Shown here one piece after another: positions 1-11,135 of a DNA stretch of 11,135 nt. The stretch is from a virus (lineage: Duplodnaviria; Heunggongvirae; Uroviricota; Caudoviricetes). The notes under the pieces are model-generated. The model was not told where the DNA came from, made no database searches, and saw nothing but the letters and a program-made list of their open reading frames with translations. The stretch lies in IMG/VR virus record IMGVR_UViG_2606217110_000003. One strand, given 5' to 3'. The first letter of the stretch is position 1; the number at the start of each line of letters is the position of its first letter. Both the position numbers and the translations under genes were made by a program.

Positions 1-2083
1 CCGCCCGGACCGTCAGCGTGTAACGCCCCAGCGCCAGTTGCCTGAAGCGGTATGTGGTTTCCGTCGTCCGGGCCGTGCTGACCAGCCGCTCACTGCCGTC
101 GTCCGCTGTTACGGTCAGACGGAGCAGGAAGCTCACGCCCTTCACCACCTTCGGTGTGTCCCATCGCGCCAGCACCTGATATTCCCCGCTGTCTGCAGTG
201 ACTTCTGCGGCCAGGTGCTGCACCGCTGGCGGCGTGACACCATTCACCGTGCCACTCTGGTCGCCGTCAAAGTGCGCCCCGTTATCCACGATGGCTTCTT
301 TTTCCGGTACATGCTGCACGGCGGTGATGGCATACGTGCCGTCGTCGTTCTCACGGATACTCACACAGCGGAACAGGCGCTGGCGCAACGTCGGCAACTT
401 CAGCCCCCACACGCTGTATTCTGCAACGCCGTCAGGAACCCGGCTCACTTTCACCTTCACGCCGTCGGTGACGGACTGGACCTGCACGCTGACCGGATTG
501 CCACTTCCGTCAACCAGGCTTATCAGCGTGGTACCGGAGGATGGCAGAGTGATTTCACGGTCGAGCGTCAGCGTCCGGGTCTGGCTGTTTACCGCCAGCA
601 CGCGCCCGCCGATGCTGATACCGGCATAGTCATCATCGCAGATTTCAATGACATCGCCCGGTACATGGCGAAGCCCTTCAGCACCCACGCTGAAATCCAC
701 GGTCTGCGTCTCCAGCAGTTCCGTTTTAATCAGCCACAGCCCGGCTCGGTGTGCCTGCCCCCGGCTGGTACAGCCAAAGGCATCCATCTTCGTGACATTA
801 CGACCGTAACGGGCAATGGCCTGCGTGTCCTCCACAAGCTCTGTTGCCGTTTCCCAGCCGTTATCCGGGTCAATCCAGTTCACCTCAACGGCATTATGGC
901 GGTCCTTCAGGGCGCTGAAACTGTAGCGGAACGGCGCGCCATCATCCAGCATCACCACATTACTGCGGTTATAGGTCCACACCTTATCCGACGGCCGGTC
1001 CTGCACGAACGTCAGCGTCTGCCCGTTCCATACCGGCATACAGCGCATCGCCGAGCAGAAATCACTGAGCACATCCCACGCCTTACGCTGTGTGGTCAGG
1101 TACGCATTACAGGTGATGCGCGGCTCCGTACCGCCAAAGCCGTCCGGCACCGACTGGTCGCAGTACTGGCCGATGACATACAGCGCCCATTTATCCACAT
1201 CTGCCGCACCAAGACGTTTCCCCATGCCGTAGCGCGGATGGGTCAGCATATCCCACAGACACCAGGCCATGTTGTTGCTGTATGCCGGTTTAAACGTTCC
1301 GTCCCAGATACCGCTGTATTGTCGCGTCTGCGGGTTATAGTTCGACGGCACCTGCAGAATGCGCCCGCGCAGATGATAATTACGGCTCACCTGCTGGCTG
1401 CCGAACTGCTCCGAATCCACCTGCACGCCGACCAGTGCCGTGTTCGGGTAGCACTGTTTCACATCGATGATTTCGGTGTATGACGACCAGAGCGTTTTGT
1501 TCTGCAGCTGGTCTGTGGTGCTGTCCGGCGTCATCCTGCGCATCCGGATATTAAACGGGCGCGGCGGCAGGTTACCCACCACCACCGAGGCCAGATACTG
1601 CGAGGTGGTTTTGCCTTTAATGGTGATGTCTTTTTCCGTCACCCAGCCACCGTTACGCTGTATCTGAACCAGCAGGCGGACTTCCGATGGATTCCTGTCC
1701 CCCTTTGAGGTGGTTTCCACCAGTGCCTGCACACCGAAGGTAAAACGCAGACGGTCGATGTTTGCCGACGTGATGGTCCGGGTGATCGGCGTATCATATT
1801 TCACTTCCGTACCCAGCACCGTCTCGGAGCCGGAGGATTCAAACCCCTCCGGCGGTGACTGCTCCTGCTCACCGGCCCGGAACACCACCGTGACGCCGGA
1901 TATATTGGTATTCCCCTCACTGTCCAGCACCGGCGTACTGTTCAGCAGCACGCTTTTTAATCCATCCACCGGACCTTCAACCGGCCCTTCGCTGATGGCA
2001 TCGATCACACTCAGCAACTGCGTGGACTTCAGGTTGTCCTTCGCTTCGCGCGGGGTATGCCCCTTACTGCTGCCTTTACCCAT
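1..2083 (-). CDS. J: Tail tip / central tail fibre protein J, N-terminal 694 codons; gene continues beyond the window start
   Basis: ATG at 2083-2081 with GGAG/GAGGA upstream. I translated the minus strand continuously from 2083 to position 1 with no stop or frame change: MGKGSSKGHTPREAKDNLKSTQLLSVIDAISEGP ... TTYRFRQLALGRYTLTVRA, recognisably lambda gpJ. No stop in window, so absent from the ORF track. Confidence 0.93.
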   Translation of the reverse strand, partial: MGKGSSKGHTPREAKDNLKSTQLLSVIDAISEGPVEGPVDGLKSVLLNSTPVLDSEGNTNISGVTVVFRAGEQEQSPPEGFESSGSETVLGTEVKYDTPITRTITSANIDRLRFTFGVQALVETTSKGDRNPSEVRLLVQIQRNGGWVTEKDITIKGKTTSQYLASVVVGNLPPRPFNIRMRRMTPDSTTDQLQNKTLWSSYTEIIDVKQCYPNTALVGVQVDSEQFGSQQVSRNYHLRGRILQVPSNYNPQTRQYSGIWDGTFKPAYSNNMAWCLWDMLTHPRYGMGKRLGAADVDKWALYVIGQYCDQSVPDGFGGTEPRITCNAYLTTQRKAWDVLSDFCSAMRCMPVWNGQTLTFVQDRPSDKVWTYNRSNVVMLDDGAPFRYSFSALKDRHNAVEVNWIDPDNGWETATELVEDTQAIARYGRNVTKMDAFGCTSRGQAHRAGLWLIKTELLETQTVDFSVGAEGLRHVPGDVIEICDDDYAGISIGGRVLAVNSQTRTLTLDREITLPSSGTTLISLVDGSGNPVSVQVQSVTDGVKVKVSRVPDGVAEYSVWGLKLPTLRQRLFRCVSIRENDDGTYAITAVQHVPEKEAIVDNGAHFDGDQSGTVNGVTPPAVQHLAAEVTADSGEYQVLARWDTPKVVKGVSFLLRLTVTADDGSERLVSTARTTETTYRFRQLALGRYTLTVRA

Positions 2084-2093
2084 TCCTCACGCT

Positions 2094-2125
2094 CCATAAA
2101 CGACAAAACCGCCCGCAGGCGGTTT
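2094..2125 (-). terminator. I-J intergenic stem-loop with U-rich tail (terminator-like)
   Basis: Minus strand after the I stop: AAACCGCC-TGCG-GGCGGTTT (8-bp stem, 4-nt loop) followed by TGTCGTTTAT, ending ~10 nt before the J RBS. Confidence 0.3.
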
Positions 2126-2143
2126 CACATAAAATATTTTGCA

Positions 2144-2815
2144 TCATCGACCAATCACCACAACCTGACCACCATCCCCTTCGTCTGCCGTGCTGATCTC
2201 CTGAGAAATCACGCGTGACCCCACGCGCATTTCACCGTACAGAACGGGCAGAACATTGCCCTGGGCAACCATGTTATCCAGTGAGGAGAAATACGTGTTC
2301 TGCTTACCGTTATCCGTTGTCTGTGTACGGGGAGTTCTGGCTTTCGGTGCCAGCATCTGCGCCACACCACCGAGCACCATACTGGCACCGAGAGAAAACA
2401 GGATGCCGGTCATACCACCGGCCCCAATGGCTGCCCCCCATGCTGCAAGGGTGGCTCCGGCGGTAAAGAATGATCCGGCAATGGCGGCTGCTCCCAGGAC
2501 AATCTGGAATACACCACCTGACTTGGCCCCGGCGACTCTGGGAACAATATGAATCACAGCGCCATCAGGCAGAGTCTCATGTAACTGCGCCGTTAATCTG
2601 GACGTGCTGACGTCCCGCCCGGCAATCCGTACCTGATACCAGCCGTCGCTCAGTTTCTGACGAAACGCCGGGAGCTGTGTGGCCAGCGCCCGGATGGCTT
2701 CAGCCCCCGTTTTCACACGAAGGTCGATGCGGCGGCCAAATCGTTGTAAATCCCCGTAAAGGCAGATGCGCGCCATGCCCGGTGACGCCAGAGGGAGTGT
2801 GTGCGTCGCTGCCAT
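2144..2815 (-). CDS. I: Tail tip assembly protein I
   Basis: 223-aa ORF in the track (MAATHTLPLASPGMARICLYGDLQRFGRR...GGQVVVIGR), recognisably lambda gpI; overlaps the 3' end of K by 103 nt in another frame. Confidence 0.92.
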   Translation of the reverse strand: MAATHTLPLASPGMARICLYGDLQRFGRRIDLRVKTGAEAIRALATQLPAFRQKLSDGWYQVRIAGRDVSTSRLTAQLHETLPDGAVIHIVPRVAGAKSGGVFQIVLGAAAIAGSFFTAGATLAAWGAAIGAGGMTGILFSLGASMVLGGVAQMLAPKARTPRTQTTDNGKQNTYFSSLDNMVAQGNVLPVLYGEMRVGSRVISQEISTADEGDGGQVVVIGR

Positions 2816-3456
2816 TTGTCGGTATACCTCTCTCGTTTGCTCAGTTGTTCAGGAATATGGTGCAGCAGCTCGCCGTCACCACAGTAAATGGCGGCATGAT
2901 TCGGCACCGATGAACCAAAACAGCACAGCAGCACATCGCCCGGTTGTGCTGATGACAACGGCACCTGATACAGCCCTGTGTCCTCCAGATTATCCAGATA
3001 GAGATTCTGACCGTGACGCCACCAGTCATCCTCGCGATGAAAATCCGGCATCTCAATCCCCGCCAGATGATAAGCATCCCGGAACAGCGTGTAACAGTCC
3101 GTCACCCCGTGCTCAAAGCGCCGCCCGGTGAGATGCGGCACACAGCGGAACTTATGAATCGTCCCCCGGCAGACCAGCCACCACGGCAAATCACTCTGCA
3201 CCTGCAGCCGCCGGTCGGCCTCACTCAGCCAGGGCAGACCACCGGGGTGGCTGTGGACCAGCGCCACAATCTCACCCTGCATTTCTGCCTGCAGCCAGTC
3301 CTCCGGAGCCATCCGGAAATAATCCTCCGGCTCACCGGAAATATTCACGCAGGGAAAATATCTTTCCCCCTCCGGCGCTCTCACCACGAAGCCGCACGAC
3401 TCCGCTGGCGCACATCGCCGGGCGTGCGCCAGAATCGCTGATTCTGTCTGTGTCAT
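2713..3456 (-). CDS. K: Tail tip assembly protein K (MPN/JAMM-like plus NlpC/P60-like domains), long form starting at MTQTES
   Basis: Track ORF 2713..3531; the first ATG after the L stop (3456-3454) gives 247 aa, MTQTESAILAHARRC...AAASTFV. HSHPGGLPWLSEAD is a JAMM-like motif. The lambda reference, as I recall, starts at the internal MAPEDW (codon starting at 3312, 199 aa). Confidence 0.85.
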   Translation of the reverse strand: MTQTESAILAHARRCAPAESCGFVVRAPEGERYFPCVNISGEPEDYFRMAPEDWLQAEMQGEIVALVHSHPGGLPWLSEADRRLQVQSDLPWWLVCRGTIHKFRCVPHLTGRRFEHGVTDCYTLFRDAYHLAGIEMPDFHREDDWWRHGQNLYLDNLEDTGLYQVPLSSAQPGDVLLCCFGSSVPNHAAIYCGDGELLHHIPEQLSKRERYTDKWQRRTHSLWRHRAWRASAFTGIYNDLAAASTFV

Positions 3457-3460
3457 GGGA

Positions 3461-4159
3461 TTACTGCGAAAGTTTGTTAATGGAAAGGAAGCCGCCAAAG
3501 TTGCCGACGTTATTGCGGAACTTACAGCCACTCAGGCATTTGCTGCATTTATCCTTCGTGATATCGGACGTCGGCTGGTCATATTCATCCGCGACAGCCG
3601 GACCGCTATAACCGCACTCGTCACCGCGATAGGTCCAGGTGCAGGTGTTGGCCAGCATGATACGTCCCGGAAAAACAGCGCCATCCGTTTCCGTCGGCGT
3701 GGACAGTACAAAGGAGGCACTCACCGCGCTCAGTTCGCTGCACTGCTCAATGCGCCAGCGGCTGATCACCTCCTGCTCCGGATCGGCGTAACTGTTTCCG
3801 TTGACGAAGTTCACCGCATCCAGAAAACGGGCATAAACCTTACGCCGGACCACCGTTCCGCCGACCAGACTCTGCATATCTTCCGCCATCCCGGTGACCA
3901 TACCGTACAGGTTAGAAACCGTCAGCGTGGGGCGCGTACTGGTGCCTTTGCCATTCAGTTCAAAACCACTCCCCTGAATGGGATACGGCTGATACTGTCG
4001 CCCCTGCCAGGTGACCGGCTCACCTTTTTCGTTCTGCTCATTACAGAAAAAATAACGTTCTCCACCGACCTCTGTCAGGTCGATTTCCCAGAGCACCACG
4101 CTGGCCGACTGCTCCGCACGGGTGCATTCATTCAGTGTTTCCTGCCGGATATCCTGCAT
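3461..4159 (-). CDS. L: Tail tip protein L
   Basis: 232-aa ORF (MQDIRQETLNECTRAEQSASVVLWEIDL...), recognisably lambda gpL; its ATG overlaps the M stop by 1 nt. Confidence 0.93.
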   Translation of the reverse strand: MQDIRQETLNECTRAEQSASVVLWEIDLTEVGGERYFFCNEQNEKGEPVTWQGRQYQPYPIQGSGFELNGKGTSTRPTLTVSNLYGMVTGMAEDMQSLVGGTVVRRKVYARFLDAVNFVNGNSYADPEQEVISRWRIEQCSELSAVSASFVLSTPTETDGAVFPGRIMLANTCTWTYRGDECGYSGPAVADEYDQPTSDITKDKCSKCLSGCKFRNNVGNFGGFLSINKLSQ

Positions 4160-4488
4160 CAGTTCACCACCTGTTCAAACTCTGCGCTGAACTCAACACG
4201 CAGCATACTGACCCGCGACGACCATTTTGCGCAGGTCACCTTTATCTGCCGCCACTCATAAGGCGGCGTCCACAGAAAGGCTTTCCAGCCCCCGTGCTCT
4301 TCCAGAAACGACTCCAGCGCCGTGGCCTCCCAACGGGGGACAGAAAGCGTCACGCTGTACGTTTTCAGGTTGGCATTCAGCCCGGCAGGCGCTCGCTGGG
4401 AATAGCCATCACCAAAGCGCACCTTTCTTACAGAAGGGGCCGAAGCCACATCCATACCGGGTTTCACTTTCCAGCGGAAGGTTTTCAT
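4159..4488 (-). CDS. M: Tail tip protein M
   Basis: 109-aa ORF (MKTFRWKVKPGMDVASAPSVRKVRFGDGYSQ...), recognisably lambda gpM; ATGA overlap with the H stop. Confidence 0.93.
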   Translation of the reverse strand: MKTFRWKVKPGMDVASAPSVRKVRFGDGYSQRAPAGLNANLKTYSVTLSVPRWEATALESFLEEHGGWKAFLWTPPYEWRQIKVTCAKWSSRVSMLRVEFSAEFEQVVN

Positions 4489-7058
4489 CGTCCACCTCCG
4501 GAGAACAGACCACCATCGCGCATCTGCCCGGTCACAACATCCATTGCCGCCTTACGGGCTACGTCATAAACAGCCTTCAGCGCCTGTGGCCCTATCTGAC
4601 CGTTCGTGCCGTCGTTGTTAATCACCACATGGTTATTCTGCTCAAACCCGAACCCCTGAACGCCGCATTTGCGCCGGACTTCCGGTGCCACCGACATAAC
4701 CGCCGGTGGCATAGCCGCGCATCAGCCGGTAGAGATTCCCCACGCCAATCCGGCTGGTTGCCTCCTTCGTGAAGACAAATTCACCACGGTGAACAATCCC
4801 CGCTGGCTCATATTTGCCGCCGGTTCCCGTAAATCCTCCGGTTGCAAAATGGAATTTCGCCGCAGCTGCCTGAATGGCTGTACCGCCTGACGCGGATGCG
4901 CCGCCACCAACAGCCCCGCCAATAGCGCTGCCGATACTCCCGACAATCCCCACCATTGCCTGCTTAAGCAGAATTTCTGTCATCATGGACAGCACGGAAC
5001 GGGTGAAGCTGCGCCAGTTCTGCTCACTGCCGGTCAGCATCGCCGCCATATTCTGTGCAATACCATCAAAGGTCTGCGTGGCTGCACTTTTTACCTGCAA
5101 CATACTGTCCGTGGCGCTCTCTTCCCACTCACTCCAGCCTGACCTGAGGCCTGCCATCCAGCTCCCGCGAAGCTGGTCTTCAGCCGCCCAGGTCTTTTTC
5201 TGCTCTGACATGACGTTATTCAGCGCCAGCGGATTATCGCCATACTCCTCCTTCAGGCGCTGTTCCGTGGCTTCCCGCGCTGCCTGCCGGTCAGTCAGCC
5301 CCCGGCTTTTCGCATCAATGGCGGCCCGTTTTGCCCGTTGCTGCTGTGCAAATTTATCCGCCTGCTGCGCCAGTTCGTTCAGCCGTTTCTGGTGTTCAAC
5401 CTTATCGCCAAGTTCAGCCAGCTGACGTTTGTACTCCAGCGTCTCTTTTTCATGAGCAAGAAGAGATTTTTCCTCGTACGGACAGCTGGCGACGTTGTGC
5501 CGCCTCCTCCAGCACCGCAAACTGACTTTCTGCCTTCCACAAATCCCGGCGCTGCTGGCTGATTTTCTCATTCGCTCCGCATGCTGCTCAAGCATCCGGA
5601 GTTCAGCCTGAAACGCAAGAAGAGCAGCATGAGCACGATCTTCCTGACGATCGCCCGCAGACACCTTCACGCCGGACTGTTTCGGCTTTTTCAGCGTCGA
5701 TTCATAATCCTTTTTCGCCGCCGCCATCAGCGTGTTGTAATCCGCCTGCAGGATTTTCCCGTCTTTCAGTGCCTTGTTCAGTTCTTCCTGACGGGCGGTA
5801 TATTTCTCCAGCGGTGTCTGCAGCCGTTCGTAAGCCTTCTGCGCCTCTTCGGTATATTTCAGCCGTGATGCCTCAGATTCGGCCCAGTCCTTTGCTGCCA
5901 TCTCTCTGGCCTTTTCAAGATCGGCCAGCAACATCGCGACTGAAAGCCCAAGATGCGCATTCGCTCTGTCTTCCCATGCTCCACGGAGATTGGCAAGAAA
6001 TGCTGAGGTTTTACCGCGCCGGTGGCTCCGGCTCTCATACCACTGCCATTTCTTGTCCGCTTCATAAAAAGCCTCTGCCTTAAGCAGCATATCAGCGAGG
6101 AATCAGGACGACCAATATCCAGCACCGCATCCCACATGGATTTGAAGGCCCGCGCTGTCCTGTCTGCCCAGGTCTCCAGCGTGCCCATGTTCTCTTTCAG
6201 GCGGCGGGTCTGGTCATCAAACCCCTTCGTCGCGGCCTCGTTCGCCGCCTGCAATGCCCCGGCTTCATCGCCGGAACGCTGCAACTGAGCAACATACGCA
6301 ATCTGCTCCGCCGTCACGTTATGGAACTGGCGTGCCATCGCTGTCAGCCCTGACGTCGGGTCTGTGGTCAGCTTCCCGAAGGCTTCAGCGACCTTGTCCA
6401 CCTCCACGCCGGATGCAGAGGAGAAACGCGCCACACTCTGGCTGATGGATGCAATCTGAGCCTCACCGCTTACCCCCGCCTTAACCAGTGCACTGAGTGA
6501 CTCGCTGGTCTGGTTAAACGTCAGCCCTGCCGCCTGCCCGGCTCTGGACAGGACCAGCATACGATCTGCCGTCAGTCCCGCCTGATTGCCGGAAAGGACC
6601 AGCGTTTTGTTGAAATCGGACAGGGTTGAGTCCCCCTGATACCAGGCATACGCCAGCGCACCGGTCGCCACCGCCAGCGAGGTGGCCCCGACCATCGGCA
6701 GGGTGATCGCACCGGCAAGCCCCCTGAACATGGGGATCATCCCGCCGAAGGAGTCCTTCACCTGACCACCCTGTTGCAGCAGGATCAGCCACGGACTTTG
6801 CCCGCCTGCAAGCTGCGTGGCCACGTCGGTGAACTGTGCAGGCAGCATACGCATGGCAGCTTTATACTGCCCGACGGAAATCCCCGCTTTCTGTGCAGCC
6901 AGCGCCTGTCGGCTCAGCGACTGTTCAACGACTGCCGCTGTTTTTTTCGCATCACTTTCCGTACCGGAAAAATGACGCCTGACTCTGGCCATCTGCTCGT
7001 CAAATCTGGCCGCATCCAGACTTAAATCAACGACCAGATCGCCTACCGGTTCAGCCAT
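4485..7058 (-). pseudogene. H: Tail tape-measure gene H with interrupted reading frame (frameshifted pseudogene or sequencing error)
   Basis: The N-terminal ~320 codons (track ORF 5859..7058, MAEPVGDLVVDLSLDAARFDEQ...DIGRPD) and the last ~65 codons (track ORF 4485..4712, ...FEQNNHVVINNDGTNGQIGP...LFSGGGR) share one frame. The middle ~1.4 kb (track ORF 4642..6090, ...SRLKYTEEAQKAYERLQTPLEK...) is in another. Frame transitions lie near 6088-6102 and 4646-4690. Total span 2574 nt is a multiple of 3. Confidence 0.75.
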
Positions 7059-7485
7059 ACCGGACTCCTCCTGCGATCCCTTCTGATACTGTCATCAGCA
7101 TTACGTCATCCTCCGTCATGTCCGCCACATCCGGGGAAGCGGGGATAACTTCATTCCCGTCCGGGCCAAAGCGGACACCTCCGGCAAGCCCTGCCGCTTT
7201 CTGCATCAGCACATCATCTTCAGGCTCTTCGTCAGCCTCGCGCCGGTTCAGCAGACTGAAATCCAGCGGATGCATATCCGGATCGCTGAAAAACAGGCTG
7301 AGCACGGTGTACGTCAGCCCGGAAAAGTGCATATCCAGCAGAACATCATGAAAATAATGGGTACTGTAAAAGCGGTGCCAGTCGGCATACTCCGTGGATG
7401 ACATCCCGGCAAGCATGGCACGCCAGTCGGGTCGCCCCATCTCACGCGCCAGTTTCAGGGCAAAACTCAGCTCACCGTCGAACAC
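7051..7485 (-). CDS. T: Tail assembly chaperone T segment, expected to be expressed only as the G-T fusion via -1 frameshift
   Basis: 144-codon ORF in the -1 frame relative to G (..FDGELSFALKLAREMGRPDWRAM...), recognisably lambda gpT; it has no RBS or ATG of its own and starts inside the G 3' end; its stop overlaps the H start. Confidence 0.85.
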   Translation of the reverse strand: MFDGELSFALKLAREMGRPDWRAMLAGMSSTEYADWHRFYSTHYFHDVLLDMHFSGLTYTVLSLFFSDPDMHPLDFSLLNRREADEEPEDDVLMQKAAGLAGGVRFGPDGNEVIPASPDVADMTEDDVMLMTVSEGIAGGVRYG

Positions 7486-7889
7486 TTTCCCGCAGAAACA
7501 GGCTCTGCTGGCCCGGCGTCATCTGCCTGTTCAGGTGCATCATTCACAACAAACTCAGACATACCGGACAGACGCATTACCACATTTTCAGCCTGAGCAA
7601 TTGCCTCTGTGGGCCAGGTGGTAAGCACTTCCTGCTCAATTTGTTTAACGGCTTCATTCATGGACGGCATCTTTGTCTTCTGCGGATGGTTATGCCACAG
7701 GGACATCGCCACCAGAAAAGCACCGGTTCTGACGAGATCTTCCACGCTCACCTGTCGATTGAGACTGGCTCCCGCCTGTTCTGCCTGTCGTTTCAGCAGG
7801 GCGAGATGCTCAATTCGCTGCAGGGCTGACAGTTCAGAAAGCGTGACGGTCACACCGTTATATTCAAATGATTCGGTTTTCAGGAACAT
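7467..7889 (-). CDS. G: Tail assembly chaperone G
   Basis: 140-aa ORF (MFLKTESFEYNGVTVTLSELSALQRIEHLALLKRQ...SAGKCSTVS), recognisably lambda gpG. Confidence 0.93.
   Translation of the reverse strand: MFLKTESFEYNGVTVTLSELSALQRIEHLALLKRQAEQAGASLNRQVSVEDLVRTGAFLVAMSLWHNHPQKTKMPSMNEAVKQIEQEVLTTWPTEAIAQAENVVMRLSGMSEFVVNDAPEQADDAGPAEPVSAGKCSTVS
7495..7501 (-). other. Programmed -1 ribosomal frameshift slippery heptamer G GGA AAG (G to G-T fusion)
   Basis: Minus strand reads GCG GGA AAG TGT TCG ACG GTG AGC TGA (..AGKCSTVS stop) in the G frame; slipping -1 at GGGAAAG gives GGG AAA GTG TTC GAC GGT GAG CTG.. = GKVFDGELSF, the T frame. Confidence 0.85.
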
Positions 7890-7904
7890 CGCTGACTCTC
7901 CGGA

Positions 7905-8645
7905 TTAACTGGCGGTGACGGTAATTTCTGCAACCGCAGCAAACTCACCATTACCGGATACAACCGGAATGTTGACCTTGCCTGCAGCAACACCTTTCAC
8001 GGTGATGGTCATACCACTGACCGACACGGTGGCTTTTGTTTTATCCGCAGACACCGCACGGAAGCTCTTGTCGGTTGCGCCCTCCGGCTGGAATGCCACG
8101 GTCAGCGTGGTGCTCTGCCCTTTCACCACCGAGGTGCTGGCAGGCGTCACGGTCATGCCGGTTGCCGCTGTTACCGTGCTGCGATCTTCTGCCATCGACG
8201 GACGTCCCACGTTGGTGACTTTCACCGTGCGGGTGATCACTTCCTTCGCCGTCACCGCCTTACCGATACTGCTGACCCAGCCACGGAACACATCGACTGT
8301 GCCGTTCGGGAAGCGGATTTTATAGGCACGGGTATCACCTTCATTAAACCACGCCAGCAGCGCCTGCTGCCCCTGCTCTCCGGGCATCCACGCCAGCGTG
8401 AAGCTGGTATCTCCGGCAGATTTCTGCCCCTGCCCGGTCGCAGTCCAGTCTGCATCTTCATCATCGAGATAGCTGTCGTCATAGGACTCAGCGGTCAGTT
8501 CGCCGGGCGTCAGGTCTTTAACCTTTGCCAGACGCGACCAGTCAACGTCTGAAAGCGGATTCGCATAAGGGTCACCGCTCCCCTTATAAACCCACAGGGT
8601 GGTCCCGGCACCTTTCACCGGCATTACAGGATTTGGTACAGGCAT
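7905..8645 (-). CDS. V: Major tail tube protein V
   Basis: Track ORF 7905..8675; the start is placed at [30 protein letters not shown] (ATG 8645-8643, GAGGA RBS upstream, 246 aa), recognisably lambda gpV; the longer track start lies inside U. Confidence 0.93.
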
Positions 8646-8652
8646 AGCGTCC

Positions 8653-9048
8653 TCACATTTCATAGGTAATGACATAAGTCAGATCGGCTGAACTCCACAG
8701 GCCCGCATCATCGTCGCGCCGGTAGTCATAGCCGCTGGCCACCATACTGGTGATCAAATCTGACAGTGCCGGGATATCGCTCATCACCGGATAAATCCGG
8801 GACTCCATCCACGCATCCAGCTCTGAATCCGGCACCTGAGCAGGCAGGAAAACTTCAATATGCAGCTCCGCCTGCCAGGTATCGCTGTCCAGCTCTTCGC
8901 CCGTGTATTCAGCGCCGGTGAGATAAACGGCAACTGCCGGAAAATCCGCCTCATCAAAAACAGCGGGGCGACCATCAAAAAACGTCGCCCCGGTGTCATG
9001 CTTCTCCAGTGCATCCAGTACGGCTGCACGGAGTTCAGTATGTTTCAT
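8653..9048 (-). CDS. U: Tail terminator protein U
   Basis: 131-aa ORF ([28 protein letters not shown]...), recognisably lambda gpU; ATGA overlap with the Z stop. Confidence 0.93.
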
Positions 9049-9623
9049 CGCTTTATTACCATCCTAAGTTGATGCTGCAGCGCATAGCCCAGCTCTTTCG
9101 GAAGACGTTCACGCCGTATCTGCTCAATATTCTGTTTAAACGCCGTGGTCAGCGGCACCGCCATCGGGATTTTCACCACATCAATGGGGTAACGGTTTTT
9201 CCCGGCCACACGCTGCATGACATGCCACCGGCCATTTTTCAGTTGCTGAATAAACGCGCCGGGAATACGACGGTTACCCACCACAAGCACGCTGCCGCCA
9301 CCTTTCAGGGATGAGCGCTGCCCCTTTTTACGACGCCTGCGGCGGGACAGGACAACCCGCGCATTCCCCAGCCTGATTACGGGCAAATCCCCCCGGTTAA
9401 CCCTGATTCTGGCCTGCGGATTTTTGACCGTGGCCCTTTTCAGCCTGGCCCTTTCCTTTACCAGTTTCCGGCGTACCTTTGTCTCACGGGCAACCTGTGC
9501 CGCCGACTGCGATATCGCGGATGAAGCAACGCGGTTAATGGCCATTGCTGACGCACCAGGCACCGCCGTTTTGCTGATACGGCTGAGGTTTTCAACGGCC
9601 TGCTCAAGACCTTTTATGGCCAT
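9045..9623 (-). CDS. Z: Tail completion protein Z
   Basis: 192-aa ORF (MAIKGLEQAVENLSRISKTAVPGASAMAINR...), recognisably lambda gpZ; GGGGGA RBS upstream. Confidence 0.93.
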   Translation of the reverse strand: MAIKGLEQAVENLSRISKTAVPGASAMAINRVASSAISQSAAQVARETKVRRKLVKERARLKRATVKNPQARIRVNRGDLPVIRLGNARVVLSRRRRRKKGQRSSLKGGGSVLVVGNRRIPGAFIQQLKNGRWHVMQRVAGKNRYPIDVVKIPMAVPLTTAFKQNIEQIRRERLPKELGYALQHQLRMVIKR

Positions 9624-9634
9624 ACATCCCCCTT

Positions 9635-9988
9635 TCAGCGGCGACGGTTAACGGCAGGCGGCACGCCACGCCCAAGCCAGAGATGACAGCTTCCACCATC
9701 ATCCGGCGAAACCCGGTCTATCCAGAAGTTTTCCTCACCGATGGTCAGCGTGTCGCCGCGCCGCAGCTGCCGCACATCATCAGTCCGGACAAACAGGGAC
9801 GGGCTGGAGCCTTCAACGCGCACGCCCTGTCCGGCATAGCTGATATTTTCAGGGTCATCAAAAACACCACGTATTACTGCGCCGGACTGCTCACCGGATG
9901 TCATGGTGGCTGACGTTCCCATGTACCCGCGTATCGTTTCATCGGCGCGGGCAATGGCAGCATCGAACAGGTTATCGAAATCAGCCAC
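9635..9988 (-). CDS. FII: Head-tail joining protein FII
   Basis: 117-aa ORF (MADFDNLFDAAIARADETIRGYMGTSATMTSGEQ...), recognisably lambda gpFII; GGGAGG RBS upstream. Confidence 0.93.
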   Translation of the reverse strand: MADFDNLFDAAIARADETIRGYMGTSATMTSGEQSGAVIRGVFDDPENISYAGQGVRVEGSSPSLFVRTDDVRQLRRGDTLTIGEENFWIDRVSPDDGGSCHLWLGRGVPPAVNRRR

Positions 9989-9999
9989 AGCGCCTCCCG

Positions 10000-10395
10000 T
10001 TATTGCATTCTGGCCAGGCCGCGCTCTGTCATTTCGGCTGCCACACCGGCAGAGACACGAAACGCCGTTCCCGGCAGCACAAATGCCACAGGTTCATCCC
10101 GCGTGGCGTGAAGTGCATCGGTATGCAGCGTCACCAGTGCCACAACCGTGACCAGAGCAGCCGTATCAGTCACGGTATCCGTCTGTGCTGATACCACCTC
10201 ATTTTCATGTCCGGTCAGCGCATTTTCCGGGCTGACAGACGAGTCCTGACCGGCTCCGTCATCCGTGTCATCAAGCTCCTCTTCCAGCTCTGCCACACGG
10301 AGCGCCAGTTCTTCTTTCGTCCCCGTCAGGCTGACATCACGGTTCAGTTGCTCACCCAGCGACCGGAGACGGGCAATCAGTTCATCTTTCGTCAT
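10000..10395 (-). CDS. FI: DNA packaging / head assembly protein FI
   Basis: Track ORF 10000..10434; the start is placed at the internal MTKDELIARLRSLGEQLNRDVSLTG (ATG 10395-10393) preceded by GGAGGAGTCC, 131 aa; recognisably lambda gpFI with a variable Asp/Thr-rich linker. Confidence 0.9.
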   Translation of the reverse strand: MTKDELIARLRSLGEQLNRDVSLTGTKEELALRVAELEEELDDTDDGAGQDSSVSPENALTGHENEVVSAQTDTVTDTAALVTVVALVTLHTDALHATRDEPVAFVLPGTAFRVSAGVAAEMTERGLARMQ

Positions 10396-10404
10396 GGACT
10401 CCTC

Positions 10405-10432
10405 CACAGAGAGAAAATGGCCCCTAAGGGCC
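10405..10432 (-). terminator. E-FI intergenic stem-loop with U-rich tail (terminator-like or mRNA-stabilising hairpin)
   Basis: Minus strand immediately after the E stop: ATGGCCC-TTAG-GGGCCAT (perfect 7-bp stem, 4-nt loop) then TTTCTCTCTG, just upstream of the FI RBS. Confidence 0.3.
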
Positions 10433-10436
10433 ATGA

Positions 10437-10960
<524 letters not shown>

Positions 10961-10961
10961 G

Positions 10962-11135
<174 letters not shown>

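Follow-up and report, generated by a model that had tools for sequence, protein, structure and literature searches.

The frameshifts that interrupt the tape measure gene H on this contig are very probably an artefact of assembly, produced when the consensus of a collapsed two-copy repeat was settled by a tie-break between two different alleles. In support of this, the deposited letters can be regenerated exactly from two natural alleles by a rule that has no biological meaning, and this holds at 6055-6125, at 5545-5668 and at 4644-4660. The broken reading frame does exist in the deposited letters but almost certainly does not represent a biological pseudogene; the strain itself most likely has intact H genes.

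Source genome and gene content of the contig

The window, by which we mean the whole stretch of DNA analyzed here (11,135 bp), coincides with the full length of contig JNMR01000066.1 in GCA_000700445.1, from Escherichia coli 3_267_03_S4_C2. Its orientation is that of the GenBank record, and L006 is the reverse of both. The strain is one of the 240 isolates from children in Tanzania that were covered by a single study, and its sample is listed as SRSS568333 in Table S1 of PMC6222053; it belongs to phylogroup B1 and serotype O163:H19, and its genome comprises 5.39 Mb in 185 contigs. Sequencing gave HiSeq reads of 100 bp, and the assembly was made, as for all 240 genomes of that study, with MaSuRCA 2.3.2, the Super-Read Celera Assembler (PMC6222053).

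The contig begins within J and ends within the multi-copy element IS621. Its IS621 end thus lies in a known repeat, and a repeat boundary at the end in J is an assumption. All of its genes lie on the minus strand, in the order J (partial)-I-K-L-M-H-T-G-V-U-Z-FII-FI-E (partial), so that H sits between the chaperone genes G/T and the tail tip gene M. Each neighbor of H is equal in length to its counterpart in annotated complete genomes. At the other end of the contig, homology to the major capsid gene E ends at 10905, the last 231 nt come from the end of an IS621 element, and the contig stops inside that element. The complete genome of E. coli MB06102 has the same E/IS621 junction adjoining the same tail module, and the element is annotated there as an IS621-family transposase. 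Because this junction recurs in a complete genome, the insertion in E is taken to be genuine. The prophage is truly defective, E being split by IS621. Despite the same insertion, the H gene of MB06102 is intact, with a length of 2562 nt.

Reading frames of the deposited H gene

Natural H genes relevant to this contig fall into two families: family A, like that of E300082/E200086, with a length of 2601 nt, and family B, like those of lambda, 434, strain 64 and MB06102, with a length of 2562 nt. The deposited gene has 2574 nt, which is divisible by 3, an outcome with a prior chance of 1 in 3. It does not contain a single continuous ORF of ~850-866 codons, and we attribute this failure to the assembly and not to the genome. 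Instead, the six-frame ORF list gives three overlapping minus-strand ORFs (Table 1). Pfam domains TMP_2 (at the N terminus) and Tape_meas_lam_C (at the C terminus) are found on the 399-aa and 419-aa pieces of H, and the pieces are represented in GenBank by the proteins KDU21985.1, KDU21984.1, and KDU21983.1.

We mapped the frame changes by translating H in three frames against an intact 866-aa relative. Homology follows frame 0 up to ...DIGRPDSS and continues thereafter in another frame, starting with ADMLLKAEAF.... Between 5580 and 5477 (minus strand) there are 35 codons off the homologous frame (AERMRK...ASCPY) with zero stops, after which homology resumes at EEKSLLAHEKE..., and frame 0 is regained at FEQNNHVV.... 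Four frame-disturbing indels underlie this layout, which we call sites 1 to 4: one at ~6095 (net -1), one at 5580 (-1), one at ~5477 (+1 relative to the B or lambda-type alleles and -20 relative to the long, A-type allele), and one at 4652-4656 (net -2). An extra deletion of 3 nt at ~6075 is in-frame. The shifts offset each other pairwise. Among the sequences at issue in deposited H are the junctions TTGAGCAGCATGCGGAGCGAATGAG and GGCGTTCAGGGGTTCGGGTTTGAGC, given as examples, and also GATTCCTCGCTGATATGCTGCTTAAG and CTGTCCGTACGAGGAAAAATCTC.

Much of what the first-pass annotation had read from the letters stands. The coordinates that it gave for the three overlapping ORFs are correct, as are its statements that the span is a multiple of 3, that the gene is 12 nt longer than lambda H (434/lambda-type H having 2562 nt), and that the pieces are recognizable as gpH. 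Both of the transitions that it named are real and map to ~6095 and 4652-4656. Its count of at least two frame changes was correct as a minimum but low, the true number being four; the pair at 5580 and ~5477 was missed, and it is hidden in a six-frame view because the 35 codons between the two shifts are stop-free. It had also described the neighboring genes as intact and E as disrupted: I, K, L, M, T, G, V, U, Z, FII, and FI are indeed intact (J being partial), and E is truncated at 10905 by IS621.

Table 1. Coordinates of the features of the window discussed in the text
Feature	Position	Strand	Remark
Gene H, very probably a chimeric consensus of families A and B	4485..7058	-	
ORF, piece of H	5859..7058	-	399 aa
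ORF, piece of H	4642..6090	-	482 aa
ORF, piece of H	4485..4712	-	75 aa
Hybrid block 1	6066..6105	-	Site 1 (1-nt loss, ~6095) and in-frame 3-nt loss, ~6075
Four substitutions unique to the window	5927..5953	-	5927, 5935, 5939, 5953
Hybrid block 2	5513..5653	-	Site 2 (1-nt loss, 5580)
Site 3	5475..5484	-	Junction from A-type to B-type
Site 4	4644..4660	-	Junction from B-type to A-type, net -2
3' part of the major capsid gene E	10437..10904	-	Cut by the insertion
End of IS621 (IS110-family) element inserted in E	10905..11135	-	Contiguous alignment with the MB06102 junction

Indels coincide with switches between the two allele families

Long runs of H are purely of one family or the other; for instance, 81 successive informative sites in 5954-6064 are A-type. 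All five indels, including the in-frame one, fall in intervals where the sequence switches between A and B. These intervals are 2-13 nt long and together make up 3.6% of H. The mixing is finest in 5513-5653, where there are 11 switches of family within 141 nt, and at site 2, inside this block, the two alleles have equal length. The grain of the mixing can be finer than a codon: a hybrid Phe codon, TTT, combines TTA with CTT, both parent alleles encoding Leu at that position. The first-pass annotation had taken H for a divergent allele with indels, a description that does not hold, as the odd stretches mix two known allele families base by base.

Four substitutions, at 5927, 5935, 5939, and 5953, stand apart from this pattern. 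Three of the four are non-synonymous, they are absent from every collection searched, and the tie model described below fails to reproduce them with an ungapped placement of any panel sequence. Real differences of the strain could account for them, as could noise from a third copy.

Comparison with natural H genes

The closest complete genome, E200086, is 97.2% identical to the window and has all genes intact. Relative to it, all indels lie within H, save for one intergenic 2-nt repeat difference. H has four frameshifts, compared with none in the other ~8.3 kb of coding sequence, and this clustering is not due to chance. A similar concentration is apparent in short words: 21-mers that are novel with respect to 130 related loci make up 9.9% of H versus 0.4% of the sequence outside H, and they cluster at 4648-4655, 5477-5478, 5519, 5580-5638, 5927-5953, and 6066-6101. 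This panel of 130 loci takes in at least 120 IMG/VR contigs with H, and in a control of the IMG/VR scan a conserved pattern of the window found at least 120 copies of H. Intact genes are the rule in the panel, where 75 of the 83 other full-length copies consist of one ORF of 2550-2601 nt. The disrupted copies (8/83, ~10%) mostly have single homopolymer indels, and none shares the layout of the window.

We found no copy of the hybrid stretches in the natural sequences searched. Among the more than 5,000 copies of H in 5,426 complete E. coli genomes, no match for the 200-260 nt around each site exceeded ~92% identity, the best lying at ~90-92%. The 84-nt stretch 5582-5665 had zero megablast matches in these genomes and no 28-nt word in common with their more than 5,000 copies of H. 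The four junctions and one hybrid block had no exact match in IMG/VR, and the junction of site 2, the only one scanned there, had none in JGI metagenomes. Exact look-ups of proteins left the 482-aa and 75-aa ORFs unmatched and returned only the source contig for the 399-aa and 419-aa pieces, and the middle piece of H is a singleton protein cluster. We had also considered that the odd patches might belong to a rare natural third allele, a reading that we rejected because 5582-5665 has no megablast match in the complete genomes and the best site matches are ~90-92% identical.

Outside the hybrid blocks, mosaic patches do have natural matches of 100%, at 2780-3020 in K and at 5095-5170 in H. Elsewhere along the contig, blocks resembling E200086 alternate with others resembling strain 64.

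An alphabetical rule regenerates the deposited sequence

Within 5513-5653, the deposited strand has the alphabetically lower of the two bases at 30 of 31 informative A/B columns. In the rest of the contig the lower base is found at 151 of 269 such columns (56%), and measured against this background the bias in the block has a binomial P of 4e-7. We then modeled the sequence as the column-wise minimum of two natural intact alleles, with the order gap<A<C<G<T. In 6055-6125, a region of 71 nt that includes site 1 and the 3-nt loss, this model gave the deposited sequence exactly from 7 of 105 allele pairs, in solutions with 15 mismatch columns and 8 gap columns. In 5545-5668, a region of 124 nt that includes site 2, exact solutions came from 8 of 66 allele pairs, with 22 mismatch columns and 2 gap columns. 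No solution for these two regions exists under 22 of the 24 possible base orders, the two that work being A<C<G<T and A<G<C<T. By comparison, no single natural allele comes closer than 11 edits in either region, and the reverse rule does no better.

The remaining sites were modeled as end-to-end (dovetail) overlaps. At site 4, an overlap of B-type with A-type sequence and a tie zone at 4644-4660 was tried with 9 allele pairs; all 9 gave the exact sequence under A<C<G<T, whereas the other 23 orders gave it for none. Among the 24 base orders, A<C<G<T alone fits all three of sites 1, 2, and 4. Site 3 is reproduced under the same order as a dovetail of L005 with L099 in which one column is a gap and six are mismatches, but it does not discriminate, as other base orders also fit with shorter tie zones.

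We know of no process of mutation, repair or selection that would rank the bases of one strand by the alphabet, whereas a consensus caller would do so if it settled 1:1 ties by alphabet index. Because the bases follow an alphabetical order that no biological process known to us would give, a tie-break artefact is the favored explanation.

Alternative explanations

A genuine pseudogene, in which random indels accumulated in H under relaxed selection within a prophage already disabled by IS621, has some points in its favor: E is truly broken (as it is in MB06102), which makes relaxed selection on H plausible in principle, 8 of the 83 full-length panel copies of H are themselves disrupted (mostly by single homopolymer indels), and non-synonymous changes make up three of the four substitutions unique to the window at 5927-5953. 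However, from the indel coordinates relative to E200086, the probability that all four random indels would land in H is ~0.003, and random decay would not explain why each indel falls at a junction where the alleles switch, or why the bases around it are in alphabetical order. Further, MB06102 keeps an intact H with the same insertion, and the junctions occur in no other genome among the 5,426 complete E. coli genomes and IMG/VR, nor, for site 2, in JGI metagenomes. We consider a pseudogene very unlikely. Of the two possibilities left standing by the first-pass annotation, pseudogene or assembly errors, the tie-break rule and the regeneration from intact alleles strongly support the second and leave the first without support.

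Lambdoid prophages recombine often. If the H genes of two co-resident prophages had recombined in the cell, with patchy repair of mismatches and loops in the heteroduplex, the product could combine two natural allele families as a mosaic, with indels at the junctions, as is observed in H, and the alternation of E200086-like and strain 64-like blocks along the contig would fit such a history. Repair, however, does not pick bases alphabetically, as would be needed here (A over all others, T under all others, and C over G at site 4), and 11 switches in 141 nt are far finer than typical conversion tracts. In addition, alleles of equal length at site 2 would give mismatches and no loops, yet one base was lost there. 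An origin by recombination and patchy repair, under which the mosaic, frameshifted H would be physically present in the strain and the alphabetical pattern would be a coincidence, has very little probability in our judgment. A functional H, read through programmed ribosomal frameshifts or made as a split tape measure protein, might be suggested by the total length, a multiple of 3, and by shifts that compensate pairwise, as well as by the adjacent G-T genes, which use a programmed -1 shift at GGGAAAG (present at 7485-7491). This heptamer is the sole canonical slippery site; H would require four shifts, and its sites are without an in-frame slippery heptamer of the form X XXY YYZ. Moreover, 75 of 83 panel copies are one ORF, the 8 disrupted copies have no shifts at these sites, and the alphabetical rule accounts for the sequence without biology. 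The probability of a functional, frameshifted H is close to negligible.

A proposed origin of the artefact

The strain probably carries two lambdoid prophages, given that complete E. coli genomes with any H have a median of 2 copies (maximum 8) and that this genome is large. The tail modules of the two prophages would be nearly identical save for short, strongly diverged patches in H. MaSuRCA 2.3.2 would have condensed the reads to super-reads and handed these to the Celera overlap-layout-consensus assembler. Super-reads would leave each copy of a repeat with a single sequence or only a few, so that ties would be likely. We infer that the two copies were brought into a single layout and that the ties were broken inside the consensus module: sequence from both H copies would be stacked together, and their equal weight would create a tie at each differing column. 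A tied column would then take whichever state ranks lowest in the series '-', A, C, G, T, turning substitutions into a base-by-base hybrid, and columns won by the gap would be dropped, leaving net length changes of -4, -1, +1, and -2. The Celera consensus would settle ties by alphabet index, a property that we deduced from the data.

Consequences and relation to known systems

There is nothing biologically new in the frameshifts of H, and they matter mainly for how such sequences are read. The proteins KDU21983.1, KDU21984.1, and KDU21985.1, as well as RefSeq WP_248841555.1, are very probably products of an assembly artefact. More broadly, calls of pseudogenes or of a ‘decaying prophage’ in repeated prophage modules of drafts from the MaSuRCA/Celera era should be distrusted without reads. 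The signature of the alphabetical tie-break offers a read-free way to detect consensus errors from collapsed repeats in finished sequence.

The gene itself is of a familiar kind. It resembles the lambda gpH gene (853 aa, with TMP_2 and Tape_meas_lam_C) in having the same place between T and M and the same domains, and its nucleotide identity to the H genes of lambda-like phages, 434, and E. coli prophages is 92-96%. Unlike lambda-type H, the copy in the window has four frame-disturbing indels and hybrid patches that are found in no other H. The prophage as a whole is like decayed cryptic lambdoid prophages in that it has a real IS621 in E, shared with MB06102, but it differs from them in that the lesions of H are not inherited, are not random in place and are tied to allele junctions. 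The closest likeness is to the collapsed-repeat and mixed-haplotype errors of overlap-layout-consensus drafts: a short contig ends in a repeat (IS621), two real alleles alternate, the tie-break is deterministic, gap columns are dropped, and MaSuRCA/Celera was used. What sets this case apart from the usual ones is that the mixing was recovered from the finished sequence alone, with the alphabetical rule, in which the gap ranks lowest, derived from the data.

Mosaic structure and sequence variation

Outside the tail tape-measure gene H, positions 1-10905 of the window consist of blocks 100% identical to E200086/E300082-type sequence that alternate with blocks matching the strain 64/MB06102 type equally perfectly (examples are given in the table), an alternation that could be natural mosaicism or could have been produced by an assembler switching paths between two copies. 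Novel 21-mers outside H are limited to one position in J and two intervals in V, and those in V reflect known variants newly combined, without new bases. Within the AGAGAG run between E and FI, at 10408, the window differs from E200086 by 2 nt (AG); because E300082 and ECamp52 match the window there, this is natural intergenic variation.

Within H, the substitutions at 5927, 5935, 5939, and 5953 were absent from every other H copy searched. Three of the four are non-synonymous, all go toward the alphabetically lower base, and none was regenerated by the two-allele tie model, which takes the column-wise minimum of a pair of natural alleles (gap<A<C<G<T). The middle piece of H, artefactual yet deposited in protein databases, forms a singleton cluster at 90% identity among ~15 billion proteins (KDU21984.1).

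Features of the window outside and within H
Feature	Coordinates	Strand	Remarks
Novel 21-mer site	484		Single SNP in J
Strain 64-like block (example)	601-1200
E200086-like block (example)	1401-2600
Strain 64-like block (example)	2801-4000
Middle piece of H (artefactual)	4642-5901	-	GenBank KDU21984.1, RefSeq WP_248841555.1
E200086-like block (example)	7401-7800
GGGAAAG, canonical lambda G-T -1 slippery heptamer	7485-7491	-	Overlap of G and T ORFs
Novel 21-mer site	7842-7869		In V; junction-only
Novel 21-mer site	8278-8303		In V; junction-only
3' part of major capsid gene E	10437-10904		Broken by IS621 insertion
IS621 (IS110-family) element within E	10905-11135		Window stops inside element

Condition of the surrounding genes

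The presence of the slippery heptamer where the G and T ORFs overlap means that the frameshift signal of these chaperone genes is unbroken. The E/IS621 junction is identical in E. coli MB06102 (L010, a related locus with its IS621 transposase at 15000-15980); thus, the prophage backbone is truly defective, and the insertion is common to more than one strain.

Disrupted H genes in related loci

H is disrupted in 8 of the 83 other full-length genes in our panel of related loci, in most cases by a single homopolymer indel. One draft-derived H (L130, IMGVR_UViG_2531839579_000014) carries eight small deletions within H positions 591-717, each at a position of difference between the allele families, a pattern suggestive of a collapsed-repeat artefact of the kind proposed for the H of the window.
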